A DNA stretch of 63,367 nt, the filler included, from Rhabdomonas costata (lineage: Eukaryota), in NCBI GenBank assembly GCA_019059605.1. It is 38 parts of 38 records of this genome, joined end to end, with 100 filler letters (N's around TTAATTAATTAA, not from the genome) between each part and the next. Parts side by side here need not be neighbours in the genome. Positions count along the whole stretch, not along the records: positions 61,799 to 63,367 come from JAHMHO010012860.1; 37 more parts are not named here. One strand, written 5' to 3'. Numbering within the stretch: the first letter of the stretch is position 1; every line of letters starts with the position of its first letter. The position numbers were made by a program, and so were the translations under genes. Shown here in pieces: positions 14,306-63,367 of the stretch. The notes under the pieces are model-generated. The model did not search any database. It saw only the letters and a program-made list of their open reading frames with translations, and was not told the DNA's origin.

Positions 14306-15069
14306 CTGTGACATCACCGCACAGCATGAGCATTCAAAGGATTCCATTACACGACTAAAATACAGCGGTAGACACATTTGACGATTTTAAATGTAAAATT
14401 CTGTGGTGTCCAAATTCTGCCGAAAAACGTTAAAGAATGATTTACACCTTCAGCGCTCGCGTGTCTGGATGGTCCATGGCAGTATCGCCTTGCTGTGTGT
14501 CTTTTTTATGCGGCCGCCTTTTCTTCCGGGTTCTTTCCCTTGTAGGTTCTTTCGTTCTGATTCTTCTGGAAATTTAGGGTTGCTGGGTTGTATACGGGTC
14601 GGGAGGATGCTGGGTTCTCCCGTCCCGTCACTCTCTGTAACTTCGGTACTGGTACCGAATCCTGCGAAATGTAATGAGTATTGTGATGTGTCCTTTTCAT
14701 GAGCAGCAAAGAAGCGCAGCGAAATTCTCTGAGAAACAGGTACAACATTCTCAGCGGAGGCTCCAGACTGAATTCCTGCTAATGCCCACAGAGGCCAATT
14801 CATGTCTATGGTGCCTCAGATCGTGAAGCATGCCAATCTCTTGCTGGGTGTTACCTTCTGAAGCATGGGCAGGATGACCCAAGGGGCCCAGGGGGTACGA
14901 GCGCGGAAGGTTGGAGAAAAAAACACCCNNNNNNNNNNNNNNNNNNNNNNNNNNNNNNNNNNNNNNNNNNNNTTAATTAATTAANNNNNNNNNNNNNNNN
15001 NNNNNNNNNNNNNNNNNNNNNNNNNNNNGGTGCGGTCCCACCCTTTCTGCTCTCTCTCTCCCTCATTAG

Positions 15070-15383
15070 GGTGGGAGCTCACCGGGACCTTCGCGGTGAT
15101 GGTGTGGACCATCCTCACCAAGGACGTGGCCCGGTTTGTGCTGCTGTACCTCACCTTCCTGGTCTCCTTCGCACTGGCCCTGTACGGGGGAATCCTTTAC
15201 GACCCTGACGACGCGGCGACGGAGCTTCAGGACGCCTTCCTGCAGCCTGTGGGGACGTGGCTTGGAGGGATCCAGTACGGGGTGTTCCTGAGCTTCGGCC
15301 CGAAGTGGTTCGGAGTGGTGCTGTTTGTCGTGTGGGTGATCCTGTCCACGGTGCTGCTGGCCAACCTGTTGATCGCAATGATG
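15070..15383 (+). CDS. TRP-like cation channel, S5-pore-S6 exon
   Basis: WELTGTFAVMVWTILTKDVARFVLLYLTFLVSFALALY...VLFVVWVILSTVLLANLLIAMM carries the TRP hallmarks G.f..M....l..D..RF and NLLIAMM. Probable donor ATG|GCATGC. Confidence 0.8.
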
Positions 15384-15695
15384 GCATGCGTTGCTGTGGC
15401 TTTCCCCCTTGCAATTCTTTCTTTCGCTTTCAGAAATGGTCTACTCAATTCAGTTGAGTTTTTCCAGAGCCTCGAGGCGCTTCCTTTCGAAGCATTTCAC
15501 GTGTGCTCGGAGGCAACTCTGGGTCGCTGTTGGTTGGCTTTTTTCCACGGTTTTCACAGAGTGACTTGTATTTTTTATTCAGCCTTGAATTCACGATCCC
15601 CAGACTCCTTCATCCGACGGAACACGCACACAGACCTGTGTGTACATGTGTACACAAATACTGAGGACCCCCCCCAAAAAAAAATCAAGCATATC

Positions 15696-16164
15696 AAGCG
15701 GATCGGTGTTTAATCAATGGTTGAATCAAGCGGATGGAAACAGATCCGTGCCTAATCAAGTATGCTTCCTCTGCTGAGCTGACCACCACCGCATGGGCTC
15801 TTTCCTCCACCGTCCAGCGCATTGTGCAAAGCGGGTGTTTGTTTGTTTTTGGAAGAAAGGACAAGATCCGTCACTAGAAGGAGACGCAGCCCGGTAACCC
15901 CCCCCCAAACAGAATGGGAAGCACCCAAGACAGAAACCAGCACCGGATCCCAACCACCAAACTTTGTCGTAAAAGGTATTCAAAATACCTTTTAAGTAGT
16001 TATTGCGTTAACTTGGACATCTGACAGGTGGAATAGGCAAATGAAAGCAGATCCGTTCTTATTCAGATAGTTAAATCATGAGGATGTTTTGAAAGCAGAT
16101 CCGTGCTACATACTATATTTGGTGTTTGAGTTTGGCAGATTGAACAAGATCCGTTCTTAATCAA
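15696..16164. repeat. Degenerate short dispersed repeat, about 22-bp motif, about 6 copies
   Basis: AAGCAGATCCGT(G/T)CTTAATCAA-like copies near 15696, 15738, 15860, 16045, 16093 and 16143. Confidence 0.7.
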
Positions 16165-28387: not shown

Positions 28388-29259
<872 letters not shown>

Positions 29260-30636
29260 CTGGAAAAAAAGCAAAAGGGGAAAAACAAACAAAGCTAAAG
29301 TGGGCAAAACCGCTCCAATGGACCCTGTTATTTCATGGGCTCTTTCAGAAAACCATTATTCTTCTTTTGTGGCTTTGTCCTGTCCAATTATGGCACCCTC
29401 TTGCAGCGATGGCATAACCAGTGACAAAAAACTCTTTGCACGTTATGCTAAGCGTTAGTGGAGCGGAGCGTGGCGGTGGCGGTGGAAACACATGCGGGAA
29501 AATGTATCAGGGAAATCCGCAGCTAGGGGTGCGATTCGCTGGTGCCACGGACGACCACCTTTCCTCTCCTTTCGGCGAGGAGCGCTGTGCGGTTCAGCTA
29601 CTGAGACAGTGGCGCTACTCTTGTGAGGTTTTTGCCGCGCTGCTCCGTTTTAGTTCTTCTCCCCTCTTTGTCACACTGCTCCGTTGTGGCACTCCGATGG
29701 CCTGAACTCAGTACAGCGGGAGGCTCACAGCAGCGGCAGTCGTGCACTGAATTTCTCGAAACCTGACCGTTTCCTTCGGAAACTTTCGTTTCCCGGGGCC
29801 CAGGAGAAGGCAACAAGAGGAAAGGCACACAACTGTTTTCATTTTCACAACCAAAAATTTCATTTTCACAACCAAGGTGGGTTGTGTACAGCGTTGGGGC
29901 CGTGGCAGTTCACAGACTGCGAAACCGTCAAGAAGAAAGGGAGCGAGAAGAAAGAAANNNNNNNNNNNNNNNNNNNNNNNNNNNNNNNNNNNNNNNNNNN
30001 NTTAATTAATTAANNNNNNNNNNNNNNNNNNNNNNNNNNNNNNNNNNNNNNNNNNNNTGTGTTTGTGGACCACATGTTTCCCCCCGCGGCGGCTTGTCAG
30101 CAGCCACGGGGGGAAACATGTGGTCCACAAACTGCGCGCCATAGATGAGCGAAGAAATTTACACACACCAGGTCCTGCCGCAAGAGTCTTCGCTGCTCAA
30201 GTTGTAAAGTGAATGAATGAACAGCCATCACCTATGTTTGCCGGTCTCAGGAGTCCTAGTGAGTTGCTGAGGGCATTTTTTTAAGTCTGGAATCCCCACA
30301 GCACTGTAACAGAGAGAGAAGGTGAGCCAGTCCATGTCAACTGGGTACTGTCCCTATCCAGCTTTTAGGGACAGGTCGACTGGGCACATCAGCTCACAAT
30401 GTGAAGATCTACACTGAGAAGGCGTCGCTCACAATAACCTGATTACCCTGATTACCAGTGAAAGGATGAGCAGCAAATGCACCGAATTATATGCGCAAAT
30501 TACTGGCTGAGAGCTGATATGCACCCCTCAAACACATCCGCCCATCCCTGCCATTGCTTTTCAGAGCTGTTCAGAGCTGCATTGGTTCCGAATTACATGA
30601 TAGCATTGGTAGTTAGTATTTCCTCCGGTGCGGCAG

Positions 30637-30756
30637 GTCATTTGGAAGAAGCCAGAGGAGTTCAAGATCACCGCTCTGCAGATGGTGATGGCTGCCTTTC
30701 CACAGAACCCGTTCTATGCCGGCTTTGGCAACCGGGCAAACGACACCGTGTCGTAC
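30637..30756 (+). CDS. LPIN: Next lipin LNS2 exon, on the opposite strand
   Basis: CAG|VIWKKPEEFKITALQMVMAAFPQNPFYAGFGNRANDTVSY is the direct continuation of ...AFKRE (lipin REVI.KKPE.FKI..L...PFYA.FGNR..D..SY). Confidence 0.9.
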
Positions 30757-30858
30757 GGGGACGGTTCACAAAAGGGCAGAATAGTCTTTGATCTTTCACT
30801 TCAGATAACTGAGTCGTGAAGCCACTATATCAGTATATGATGTTATCCTGTTAGTGAC

Positions 30859-50652: not shown

Positions 50653-51640
50653 GGTGGTGCTGTACATCGTCGACTCATACCAGGTTATCCTTCAGCTTGT
50701 GTGTGGGGGAAACCGTGGGGAGAGCTCTTTTCATTGCATAAAATTTCCATATGGATCTGTCTTTCTCTTTCTGTCTTTCAGTTTGATAACAGTTCATTTT
50801 GAATCCATTTGGGTGCGGTTTTTTGAAGAGGGTTCCTATCTCATTTGAAGTACACCACCAGGAGTCAAGGACATTTTGTACCACTTCTTCTTTTTTACGC
50901 GTTAGGTGGACCAAGCTCTCGCGGAGGCGGGATACGCCATGAAGGCCGTTGCTGCAATCAGCGCCATCTTCTTCAGCATTGACATTATTATCAACATCCT
51001 GATCAGCCCCACGATATACTCCTACTTCCTAAAGTCTGGCGATGCACAACACCGGGACCCCACGATTTCATTTTTTCTTTGATGGAACAAAGAAAACAAG
51101 AAAAAAAGGTAGTAAAGAAGAACTTCGTTTGTTGTCCAAGATAAGCAGCTTGCCCCGTCTTTGGAACTAATGCACAGTGTGCGCACACAAATACCCGCAT
51201 GATCTTTTGACTCCTGTCCATGCACTTCACACTGCTCTCCAGCTATTATAACACATCTGTCACCTGATCACGCTTTTACCACGATTTTTTTCCTTCAGAA
51301 TTCCGTCTCGCTGACGCAGTCTGAAAAGCGGAATCCAAACGTCAACATGTCGTCTGTTGGTTTAATGATTCGTCGAGACAAACGCAACCTCTTCTTTATC
51401 ACTTCTCGTTTTCAACAGCATGCTCTCCGGTGTCAATATTTGGTCCTGTTTAGATTATAAGATTCTTCCGCAAGTCGCGCCTCCTGTGTGTTCTTATGGG
51501 GCAGGTGGGACTCCTGGGTGGACATCATCTCAGTGATCCCACTGTTTACGATGTTTACTCCTTACAAGCTGGCGCCCTTTCTCACTGTCTTCCGAATGTT
51601 TCGGCTCACTCGGGTGTACCGGATCCTCCGCCTGACGAAG
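50653..51640 (+). CDS. Voltage-sensor domain (S1-S4) of an ion channel, three exons
   Basis: Exons 50653-50683 (VVLYIVDSYQ), 50906-51033 (AIFFSIDIIINILISPTIYSYFLK) and 51505-51640 (WDSWVDIISVIPLF...FLTVFRMFRLTRVYRILRLTK). S4 has Arg at every third position. Confidence 0.85.
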
Positions 51641-53032
51641 GTGGAGCAACACCCACCNNNNNNNNNNNNNNNNNNNNNNNNNNNNNNNNNNNNNNNNNNN
51701 NTTAATTAATTAANNNNNNNNNNNNNNNNNNNNNNNNNNNNNNNNNNNNNNNNNNNNGTGGTGGGTGTGGTTGGGTGTGGGGGGGAGATAAAGAATGGGG
51801 AATTTTGGCGCATGTACATTGCACACGACGTTGAGAGGGAGATAAACATTTGCTGACGTGGGACATAGCTGGAATGCAATAAGTTAGGATTGGCCGTTGA
51901 CCGTTGAAGGGAAGGTTATTTCGAGATTCGATGATGCATGCATTCCAAGAATCATGGCCATCGGCCGTGAATCTTCATCAGTTAGCCCAACCCCTGGAAC
52001 GAGAGGCCCACGTGCTGCTTTGTTTTGTGGCCTCTCATTCAACTTTCTCCTTCACCAGGCAAGGTCACAAACTAAAAAAAAAACAGCACCTGCTGTGGTC
52101 CTTTGCTTTGGGGAGAAGGTCTCCCTCTGCAACCACCGGTGGCGGCCTCTACCCATGACGGGAGTGGAGGAATGGCAATAACCAGACCTGAGGTCTACAG
52201 GGGTGAAGAGGTCACATTTCATATCTTTATATCTTTGGGGTACCATTGGTTAAGTGAGGGCGCCATTTTCTTCTTTAACTGTTAATTGTGTGATTGCTTT
52301 CGAGGGGGAGGGGGCTTGTTCTGTGAAACAAACTCGCACACAGCTGGAACAGTGAAGAGCGTCAGGCGCAGCCCGTTTCTGTCGCCTCCCACACACAAGA
52401 ACTTTGAAACCATCATTGGGACCGCGGCGCCAAACCTTGGGTGTCTTGAACTTTCATAAAGAAACCAGGTTCGGGGTTGGCTCAGGGAACGGTGGTTGTC
52501 TTGAAGAACGGCCAGAAGGTGGGCGAGATGCATCAGTGTGAGTTTATGTGTCCTTGCAGGGGGTTAGGTGGCGATGCTCACAGCTTTTGCGCGGATGATT
52601 GATGCTTGATACTTGATGATGTCCACTTTCCCAAGTTTCCTCAGTGGCAGGTAGCGCAGCAACAATGTCAGCGGCACCACCAAGGCACCTGGCTGAAGGG
52701 CTGCCACCACTCAACTTCCGGTGTTTGCCCTTCGATGATCCGCCATCCTCTCTCCAAGGCTTGTACGAATCCGCTAGAGATCGTGCAAGATGTTGAAATG
52801 TGCTAAGATGGCGGATGTTGCTGCAGGGCAAGCTGAGCTCTGTGTGTGAATGGTGATAATTCACCTTATCAGTGGTGATGCCCAGTCCCCGTCTCCCGCT
52901 CCTGCTCTGGTTGAGTGAAGACCCACCCAAGTTTTGCCCCTTCGATCCCCCTCACACTTTCCGGATGAGGCCAACGTCCGAATTCGTAAAGTTGTTGGAG
53001 CGATGTGTGTGTGTGTGTGGGGGGGGATTCAG

Positions 53033-61610: not shown

Positions 61611-62166
61611 CTAGTAACGGTATGTAGGGTAAACCGGGGCTCGGCCCGCGCTGGACGGGCAGCGTTGGGCGTGGCCGTAGCGGCGGTTTACCCACACANN
61701 NNNNNNNNNNNNNNNNNNNNNNNNNNNNNNNNNNNNNNNNNNTTAATTAATTAANNNNNNNNNNNNNNNNNNNNNNNNNNNNNNNNNNNNNNNNNNNNTG
61801 TTGGTTGTTTGGGGGCTTTCAGGCAGGCCTTCCAACCCATTGCATAAGGGGAGGGCGTTGAGGTTTTCCCCGCCTCTCGGGGTGTACGTTCTGTGGACGG
61901 AGCCAGTGAATAATCGCGATGGAAGGCGAGCAACGGTGTGTTGGGAGGTTGGGGGTGAGCCATTGCGAGGTTCCAGACATTGATGTCGTCCTCGCACTTT
62001 GCAAAGTTCGTTGCCCCGAAGAATCTACGAATGGGAAACACTCCCTCCAACGTGGGTAGGCCTTCTGCATGGCTCGTTCGCAAGTGCGTTGTTGTTTGTG
62101 CAGGCATCGCTGCTTCTCTTGCGCCCGCTTTCTTCGTTCTCCCTTCGCGCCCATATCACTACGATT

Positions 62167-63327
62167 ATGGCCGACAAGGCAGGAGGCAGGCCCCTGGACG
62201 AGGTTGTGGTGAGCCGTGCGATCATTGACACGCAGACCAAGGTGATGATGGAGCACCTGGACACGGACGTGGCGATTGTGGGGGGTGGCCCCGCGGGGCT
62301 GACCGCTGCGGCGTGCCTGGCGGGCAGTGGGCTGAGGGTGTCGATCTTCGAGCGCAAGCTGGGCATCGGCGGGGGGGTGCTGGGCGGGGGGATGTGCTTC
62401 CCTCGGATTGTCGTGCAGGACGCCGCGCTGCCCCTGCTGCACCGGTTCGGGGTGAAGACGGAGGAGTACCAGAGGGGCTACTTCACCGCCAACTCCGTGG
62501 AGGCACGCACCTCGCGCCCCTTTTGGTTTTTGCCTCAATGCCTTTCCCCCCATTGCCTTTTGCCTGGGCGCGTGGGAGTGGGACTGCGAGGGTGGAGGGC
62601 AGGGCAGCGGGCTGGGGGGCCGATGGATCCCCGAGGAGTTCTCAGTGGGTAATGGGTGAGGTTAAGTCGTGGCCCTTGCATCTCTGTTTGGCTCTGACCG
62701 CTCGCTCGCAGACCACTGGGAAGCTGATCGCGGCCGCCGCGGACGCTGGCGCGGAGATCTTCAACAACATCGCCGTGCAGGATGTGATGATCAAGGTGTG
62801 GGAGTGGGAGTGTGGTGGAGAGGAGGAGGATGAGTAGGAGGAGGATGAGTAGGAGGAGGGGAAGAAAGGAGGTGCTTGGTGCCCCCGTTCTTACATACCC
62901 TGGGGTGGATTTTACGCTTCGGTGTTGTTTCTTAAAAGAGGCTTTGAACGTATGCCAGCGGTGTTGTTGCTGCTGGTGCGTTGGAGCCACTCCCATTTGT
63001 GGGGGTTGTGTCCCACAGGTTCTCACTTTCTGTGAGTCGGTGCAACGGATTTTGATTTTACCAATCGGGTTTCTCGCCTTTTTTCTACCCGTTTCGTGAG
63101 TTTTCTTTGCGATGGCGCAGGAGGACGGTGTGCTGTGCGGGCTGGTGATCAACTGGGGAGCGGTGGACCAGATCAACCTGCACGTGGACCCTTTGGTGGT
63201 CTCCGCGAAGGTCGTGCTGGACGGCACGGGCCACGGCTCAGGGATCGGGCAGATGATTGTGAAGAAGGGTGGCAGCCTGAAGATCAAGGGCGAGAAGTTC
63301 ATGTGGGCGGCCCGCGGGGAGGAGCAG
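62167..63327 (+). CDS. thi4: Thiamine thiazole synthase THI4, prokaryotic His-type (sulfide-dependent), three exons, 3' partial
   Basis: Exons 62167-62502, 62712-62795 and 63121-63327, all phase 0, give LDEVVVSRAII...DVAIVGGGPAGL...FERKLGIGGGVLGGGMCFPRIVVQ...NSVE|TTGKLIAAAADAGAEIFNNIAVQDVMIK|EDGVLCGLVINWGAVDQINLHVDPLVVSAKVVLDGTGH...GEKFMWAARGEEQ. Confidence 0.93.
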
Positions 63328-63367
63328 GCGCGAGCGCGAGCGCGCGCGCACCTTCACCCCACAACAA

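Follow-up and report, generated by a model that had tools for sequence, protein, structure and literature searches.

An intron-split eukaryotic gene predicted to encode a non-Cys THI4 of the prokaryotic kind in a Rhabdomonas costata draft assembly

The 63,367-nucleotide window analysed here, taken from the Rhabdomonas costata assembly GCA_019059605.1, carries at its 3' end a gene for a thiazole synthase of the THI4 family that is interrupted by introns and cut off by the end of its contig. The window, meaning the whole stretch of DNA under analysis, consists of 38 separate contigs, each between 1567 and 1588 bp long (1570 bp in 17 cases and 1569 bp in 13), arranged in near length order and joined by artificial N44-TTAATTAATTAA-N44 linkers, and any synteny across a linker is artificial. 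The N runs and the contig list place the THI4 gene on the last of the 38, a contig of 1569 bp (61799..63367). Because the window is made of unlinked contigs, this contig alone represents the true neighbourhood of the gene.

Three exons were recognised on the plus strand. Exon 1 (62167..62502, 112 codons) starts at the first ATG of its open frame, exon 2 (62712..62795) supplies 28 codons, and exon 3 (63121..63327) supplies 69 codons that include the active-site loop NLHVDPL; all 209 visible codons are open. The exons match the Pfam Thi4 profile (PF01946; cut-off 26.2 bits) in consecutive order, exon 1 covering profile positions 1-98 (E 1.4e-26, 93.7 bits), exon 2 positions 100-127 (E 0.023, 14.4 bits, below the cut-off alone and at the expected positions), and exon 3 positions 132-205 (E 4.7e-12, 46.1 bits). 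Aligned with P0002 and P0004, two full-length relatives described below, the exons tile columns 1-112, 113-140, and 141-209 with neither gap nor overlap. Identity to P0002 is 72% for exon 1 (residues 1-112), 75% for exon 2 (columns 113-140), and 72-75% for the exons overall. A tblastn search with P0002 recovered only the three exon blocks (exon 2 at E 4.5e-4), and no further exon was found anywhere in the window. An earlier sequence-only reading of this stretch had rebuilt a THI4 from three exons with a His codon at 63181, and both the coordinates and the content of that model are borne out by the Pfam order, the tiling, and the tblastn search.

The two complete introns, both on the plus strand and in phase 0, are intron 1 (62503..62711, 209 nt), which is GC-AG (GCACG...CGCAG), and intron 2 (62796..63120, 325 nt), which is GT-AG (GTGTGG...GCGCAG). 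Exon 2 occupies a reading frame different from that of exons 1 and 3, neither intron size (209 and 325 nt) is divisible by three, and the frame of exon 1 meets a stop at about 62650. This frame shift between exons, together with the intron sizes, means that there is no uninterrupted open reading frame (ORF) and that the gene is not a bacterial one. Splicing of intron 1 as defined here restores the exact spacing of the homologues (SVE-xxxKL, with the junction after SVE). An alternative GT donor for this intron at 62497 was rejected, as it would remove two residues common to all homologues, and so was a nonconventional euglenid intron, given that intron 1 is plain GC-AG and has neither CCAGG at +3 to +7 nor CCTG at -9 to -6. 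The locus is therefore an intron-split eukaryotic gene, as the sequence-only reading had proposed from the same exon frames and intron boundaries, and it is presumably transcribed and spliced.

The coding part visible at the 3' end closes with ...GEEQ, where homologues read ...GEKQ and go on to VVADTKEV.... About 59 C-terminal residues of the relatives (VVADTKEV...RMGPIFGGM...), the RMGP arginine among them, fall beyond the contig end. What remains of the contig on the plus strand (63328..63367) is the start of intron 3, which opens with GCGCGA and is occupied by a simple repeat. This (GCGCGA)n/(GC)n run, at 63328-63349, probably lies behind the assembly break at the contig end. Another repeat, of 2.6 copies of a 15-nt tandem unit (AGGAGGAGGATGAGT), was noted inside intron 2 at 62821-62859. 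Upstream of the gene, an AG at 62102..62103 (plus strand), 64 nt 5' of the ATG (...tgttgtttgtgcag, then gcatcg), is a candidate acceptor for spliced-leader addition, and no further AG occurs between it and the ATG. The Euglena and R. costata spliced-leader sequences each gave 0 matches in the window with up to 3 mismatches allowed, a result that is uninformative as spliced-leader genes may sit outside the 38 contigs.

Comparison with euglenid introns placed these boundaries in a familiar class. Euglena gracilis GT-AG introns have the 5' splice-site consensus GTGTG, and the GC-AG introns of this species, which are rare (659 of 28,337), have a G at +5 as their sole prominent position (PMC11170887). 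Intron 2 opens with the same GTGTG, introns 1 and 3 have G as their fifth nucleotide, and CAG closes introns 1 and 2, a pattern also described for E. gracilis, so that all the features of conventional spliceosomal euglenid introns (GT/GC-AG; GTGTG or +5 G; 3' CAG) were found here. By comparison, 96.6% of the introns in a hemistasiid diplonemid draft with an N50 of 1160 bp are non-GT-AG (PMC12621601); unlike such drafts, both complete introns of the THI4 gene are GT/GC-AG. The euglenozoan host hinted at by the sequence-only reading agrees with these intron ends and with the literature.

The predicted protein retains the motifs expected of a THI4. Exon 1 encodes the GxGxxG dinucleotide-binding motif as GGGPAG (62281-62298, plus strand), and Pfam NAD_binding_8 and FAD-family matches extend across residues 34-76. 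Alignment to PDB chains revealed a His codon, CAC (63181-63183, plus strand), in the loop NLHVDPL at the position of the sulfur-donor Cys; this His aligns with the His of 4y4m, 4y4n, and 6hk1, with Met158 of 7rk0, and with the sacrificial Cys of the yeast enzyme. The Fe(II) ligands of Thermovibrio ammonificans THI4 (TaTHI4) are Asp160 and His175 (PMC8454699). Their counterparts are an Asp codon at 63187-63189 (plus strand), found with the same spacing (x-V-D-P-L), and the His codon of a TGH motif at 63232-63234 (plus strand), situated 15 residues past the Asp as in 7rk0. The C-terminal substrate-binding part, with the equivalent of TaTHI4 Arg239 in RMGP...GGM, is present in P0002 and P0004.

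The residue found in place of Cys in non-Cys THI4s has no catalytic role, and it is His in 171 of 199 of these proteins and Met, Leu, Pro, Ala, or another residue in the others (PMC8454699). Because this residue varies and is non-catalytic, "His-type" is a label and not a mechanism, and the idea in the sequence-only reading that His is a catalytic determinant had to be abandoned.

Similarity searches assigned the protein to the non-Cys group. Exon 1 matched 7rk0, 6hk1, 4y4n, and 4y4m at E 4e-27 to 9e-21 and the Cys-type chains 1rp0, 3jsk, and 3fpz at E 1e-9 to 8e-7, while exon 3 at E<=0.01 matched only 4y4m, 4y4n, 7rk0, and 6hk1, with 0 Cys-type chains (1rp0, 3fpz, 3jsk). The full-length relative P0002 scored 225-233 bits against the non-Cys chains, compared with 119 for Arabidopsis, 78 for Neurospora, and 60 for yeast. 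The NCBIfam equivalog TIGR00292 ("sulfide-dependent adenosine diphosphate thiazole synthase") matched P0002 and P0004 at 268 bits (cut-off 148.3). When the pieces in the window, from a protein that is a quarter short, were scored singly, exon 1 reached 102.5 bits and exon 3 48.6 bits, and exon 2 gave no match. On these alignments and scores the protein is classified as the prokaryotic, non-Cys kind of THI4. The sequence-only reading had considered every diagnostic segment to be of this kind, and the PDB and ligand alignments agree with it.

Two other assignments were examined and rejected. A suicidal Cys-type THI4/THI1 does not suit a protein with His in place of Cys, no Cys-type match to exon 3, and an exon 1 that reaches at best E 1e-9 with Cys-type chains against 4e-27 with 7rk0. 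A plant THI1 that lost its Cys, in the manner of the cereal proteins, is at odds with the 119 bits of P0002 to Arabidopsis versus 225-233 to the prokaryotic chains and with the missing plant loop insertion. The sequence-only reading had likewise held that the gene was not derived from plant THI1, and the separation of the exon 1 E values described above supports it on this point.

Searches with exon 1 disclosed a small set of close relatives, P0001 to P0004 among longer proteins and P0244 among shorter ones. Identity to exon 1 is 95% for P0001 (Logan), 89% for P0244 (ENA), 83% for P0003 (ENA), 72% for P0002 (JGI, 268 aa), and 66% for P0004 (JGI, 262 aa). P0001, P0003, P0002, and P0004 far exceed the roughly 50-61% identity to exon 1 that forms the prokaryotic background. 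Counting the window gene, the clade comprises six sequence types with 66-95% identity, and its members carry 7-9 extra N-terminal residues (MAD.A.G...) relative to archaeal Thi4.

Several of these relatives appear to record introns of their own. P0001 is a genomic read-through that matches up to ...NSVE and diverges precisely at the start of intron 1. As the residue directly after SVE is Ala (GCN), intron 1 of P0001 also starts with GC. The homology of P0003/P0121 and of P0244 ends right after ...MCFPR, a point at which the window gene and P0001 continue. P0124 and P0125 (80 residues), members of the same 90% cluster as full-length P0004, end directly behind ...(Y/C)PR. The letters that follow PR (Tyr, Ser, or stop) would fit a phase-2 GT intron, and this pattern points to an intron after ...GGGM.(F/Y/C)PR that some members of the clade possess and the window gene lacks. 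Intron positions that are partly common and partly different, together with the spliced full-length forms P0002 and P0004, are what one expects of a eukaryotic gene family. A separate metagenome scan with P0002 returned only L001 529-1305 and L002 3-392, which are 45-47% identical, prokaryote-like, and outside the intron-bearing clade; neither the P0002 contig nor that of P0004 was returned.

The prokaryotic affinity of the clade was evaluated with P0002 as query. Among the matches listed, 24 of the 25 with NCBI names belong to Methanomicrobiales (Methanoculleus, Methanoregula, Methanolinea, Methanofollis, Methanoplanus, Methanospirillum, Methanocalculus, and Methanomicrobium) and the remaining one carries the label "hydrocarbon metagenome"; identity is 55-61% in all 25 cases. 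A careful IQ-TREE run was then based on 45 of roughly 240 proteins, chosen from the best matches. The set comprised 27 named prokaryotic rows and 13 further rows without a name, together with four eukaryote-like relatives and the spliced product of the window. The five eukaryote-like rows form a clade with 100/100 support on a stem of 0.6 substitutions per site. All 17 named Methanomicrobiales fall in one group of 25 rows (98/87), the eukaryote-like clade joins that group in a set of 30 rows (98/94), and 14 bacterial rows stand apart (99/99). A quick 64-row tree gave the same picture. In these trees the eukaryote-like clade is sister to the Methanomicrobiales THI4s. The horizontal acquisition proposed in the sequence-only reading fits this placement.

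An enzyme of this type has already been described in R. costata, where Soukal et al. (2021, Sci Rep 11:13070, PMC8219788) reported a methanogen-related, sulphide-dependent adenosine diphosphate thiazole (ADT) synthase. A prokaryote-type sulfide-dependent THI4 in a euglenid is thus known, and the novelty that the sequence-only reading had left possible does not apply to the enzyme type. The window gene resembles the published ADT synthase by description, and the GC content of the assembly also agrees. The published enzyme is transcriptome-based, with no exon-intron structure in the main text sections, whereas the window provides genomic exons and introns. What the window adds is at least three introns, two of them with GC 5' splice sites, which amount to genomic proof of domestication; membership in a small environmental protist clade with differing intron positions; and a sharper view of the donor, with the clade placed as sister to Methanomicrobiales specifically.

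Taken together, the locus is very likely a real eukaryotic nuclear gene, cut at its 3' side by the contig end, whose host is most likely a heterotrophic euglenid and whose product is a non-Cys, sulfide-dependent THI4 of methanogen-relative origin. On this explanation, the ancestor of a small protist clade would have acquired the gene from a relative of Methanomicrobiales methanogens, and spliceosomal introns would then have been gained and lost. The product would act as an ADP-thiazole synthase dependent on nicotinamide adenine dinucleotide (NAD) and glycine, with NAD bound by the GxGxxG fold. The Asp at 63187 and the His at 63232 would hold an Fe(II), on which the ADP-ribulose-glycine imine would form. 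Sulfur would come from free sulfide and not from a Cys of the enzyme, so the protein would not be consumed and could perform many turnovers. Sulfide use and multiple turnover are suggested by homology with the methanococcal and Thermovibrio enzymes. The N-terminus is only about 7 residues longer than that of the archaeal proteins, an extension too short for a targeting peptide, and the enzyme is probably cytosolic.

Several observations weigh against this reading and were considered together. The 3' quarter of the gene, including the RMGP arginine, lies off the contig. GC opens two of the three introns, though GC-AG introns are rare in E. gracilis (659 of 28,337), and all 29 of 29 hand-checked complete R. 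costata introns are GT/AG (PMC8219788). When exon 1 alone served as query, the best prokaryotic match was one Methanoculleaceae archaeon, followed by many bacteria; with such a mixture of named matches from exon 1, it is the full-length relatives that carry the archaeal affinity. The tree itself was built without Cys-type THI4s, and hence without a Cys-type outgroup, and without other archaeal orders, and two of its eukaryote-like rows are short fragments. As to the chemistry, R. costata lacks the enzymes for reduction of sulphate to sulphide (PMC8219788). Finally, the coding part has a GC content of 0.90 at third codon positions (GC3) and 0.42 at second positions (GC2), and this GC3 stands against 0.63-0.72 in the other exon-like ORFs, which could indicate either a foreign contig or mere strong bias.

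The last point leads to an alternative, that the THI4 contig derives from a co-cultured or contaminating eukaryote and is silent on thiamine synthesis in the main organism. The GC content of this contig, 0.606, is the highest of the 38, as is its GC3, and the assembly consists of unlinked 1.5-kb contigs. The non-coding parts of the contig span 0.52-0.64, however, and both the upstream region (0.557) and intron 2 (0.523) are near the window mean of 0.52 (52.2% for the whole window). The agreement of the intron ends with the euglenid consensus (PMC11170887) also speaks for a resident gene. In addition, spliced leaders on pathway transcripts mark the prokaryote-like enzymes, with this one as the example, as R. 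costata's own (PMC8219788). We regard a contaminating eukaryote as improbable.

A shade less probable still is that the gene is a decaying relic or pseudogene, or one inactive paralogue of several. The 3' quarter beyond the contig, the existence of a second copy at 95% identity (P0001), and two unusual GC 5' splice sites would suit such a gene. Decay, on the other hand, is difficult to reconcile with 209 of 209 visible codons being open, with the retention of every motif and ligand tested, and with a codon bias kept strong (the contrast of GC3 with GC2 noted above), and the GC start of intron 1 is common to P0001.

That the gene is a prokaryotic contaminant split by assembly or amplification artefacts and not by introns is hardly credible: its nearest named relatives are archaeal and the draft reads derive from an amplified DNA sample (PMC8219788), a treatment that can yield chimeras, yet the two interruptions are phase-0 ones with GC-AG and GT-AG ends, and taking them out gives exact collinearity, relatives are interrupted both at these codon positions and elsewhere, identity to prokaryotes does not exceed 61%, and the clade sits on its own long stem (0.6 substitutions per site).

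With a domesticated gene in a euglenid-like nucleus as the preferred explanation, the window protein can be compared with known THI4 systems. The Methanomicrobiales Thi4 proteins (TIGR00292) share 55-61% identity with P0002 and have the same size and motifs with no insertions. Their genes are uninterrupted, in contrast to the eukaryote-like clade, which lies outside them on a long stem and bears introns. The characterised catalytic non-Cys THI4s comprise Thermovibrio ammonificans 7RK0 together with 4Y4M and 4Y4N, which we take to be Thi4 of Methanocaldococcus jannaschii and M. igneus. They belong to the same fold family and share the Asp/His Fe(II) ligands with the window protein, which, like the methanococcal enzymes, has His where Cys-type THI4s have Cys; these THI4s are characterised, whereas the window protein is known here from sequence alone.

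The suicidal THI4/THI1 enzymes of fungi and plants (3FPZ, 3JSK, 1RP0) share with the window protein PF01946, the product, and the NAD-derived chemistry. The window protein differs from them in having no active-site Cys and no extended loop of the ...HTQSCMDPN type. The THI4 of E. gracilis is of the Cys type, which makes E. gracilis an unlikely host of the window gene, and came from a green plastid donor; that species has no pyrimidine branch and thus no thiamine synthesis, while R. costata is apparently thiamine-competent (PMC8219788). Non-Cys THI4s of cereal grains complement E. coli thiG only with Cys supplementation (bioRxiv 10.1101/2020.04.29.067249). The cereal proteins are paralogues of the plant Cys THI4 (...SQTQSHMDANVMEAK) that arose by vertical substitution, in contrast to the window gene, which would be a transferred prokaryotic type. 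A literature search for other protists with such an enzyme gave only the R. costata paper.

For plants and fungi, suicidal THI4 ranks among the costliest enzymes, and there is a search for catalytic replacements that use sulfide (PMC8454699). A THI4 already at work in a eukaryotic cell would be a natural replacement candidate. Should such enzymes be oxygen-tolerant and low endogenous sulfide be enough for them, they would offer ready-made, eukaryote-adapted substitutes for the suicidal THI4 of crops. The gene would also provide a clean case of archaeon-to-protist transfer reshaping a vitamin pathway. The hypoxic or sulfidic niche that the sequence-only reading had deduced from the gene is weakly founded, as the oxygen tolerance of non-Cys THI4s is not correlated with the ecology of the organisms they come from (PMC8454699). 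Irrespective of the gene, the mitochondrion of R. costata is described as facultatively anaerobic (PMC8219788). It is conceivable, if rather doubtful at present, that an intron-bearing catalytic THI4 family goes back to a single transfer from a Methanomicrobiales-like archaeon, is now distributed among several uncultured euglenid lineages, and is active in a cytosol without sulphate reduction.

The remainder of the window is consistent with a fragmented eukaryotic draft. The R. costata draft is described as having 36,105 contigs of at least 1 kb, an N50 of 1194, a maximum of 8093 bp, and a GC content of 51.63% (PMC8219788). Rfam returned 0 matches over the entire window at gathering thresholds. 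The THI4 contig also carries two long antisense ORFs; neither had a family match, and such ORFs are the usual by-product of high GC3. Pfam searches of the ten longest ORFs on the non-THI4 contigs found nothing beyond one weak Ion_trans match.

Eukaryote-only domains were identified on other contigs, LNS2 and Mec-17, and it follows that the assembly is eukaryotic. The LNS2 match (PF08235, E 3.5e-13) marks an exon of a lipin/Ned1/Smp2 phosphatidate phosphatase at 30613-30816 on the plus strand. On the minus strand, 28910-29332 is an exon for an alpha-tubulin acetyltransferase of the Mec-17 type (PF05301, E 1.5e-24). Tubulin acetyltransferases of the Mec-17 type are typical of ciliated or flagellated cells, and one in this assembly would suit a flagellate.

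Other contigs presented minor features. The contig at 18368-19937 has a GC content of 0.394, against 0.49-0.57 elsewhere (the THI4 contig aside), and a single ORF of at least 90 aa; it could be organellar, repeat, or foreign DNA. A 522-codon open frame composed almost entirely of Ser, Thr, and Pro (mucin-like), with no Pfam match, runs across the full contig at 38408-39973 on the minus strand. Weak Ion_trans matches were obtained on two contigs, at 15030-15710 (plus strand, E 7e-4) and at 51461-51655 (plus strand, E 1.9e-4), the latter with an S4-like Arg/Lys repeat, and both are probably exons of voltage-gated channels.

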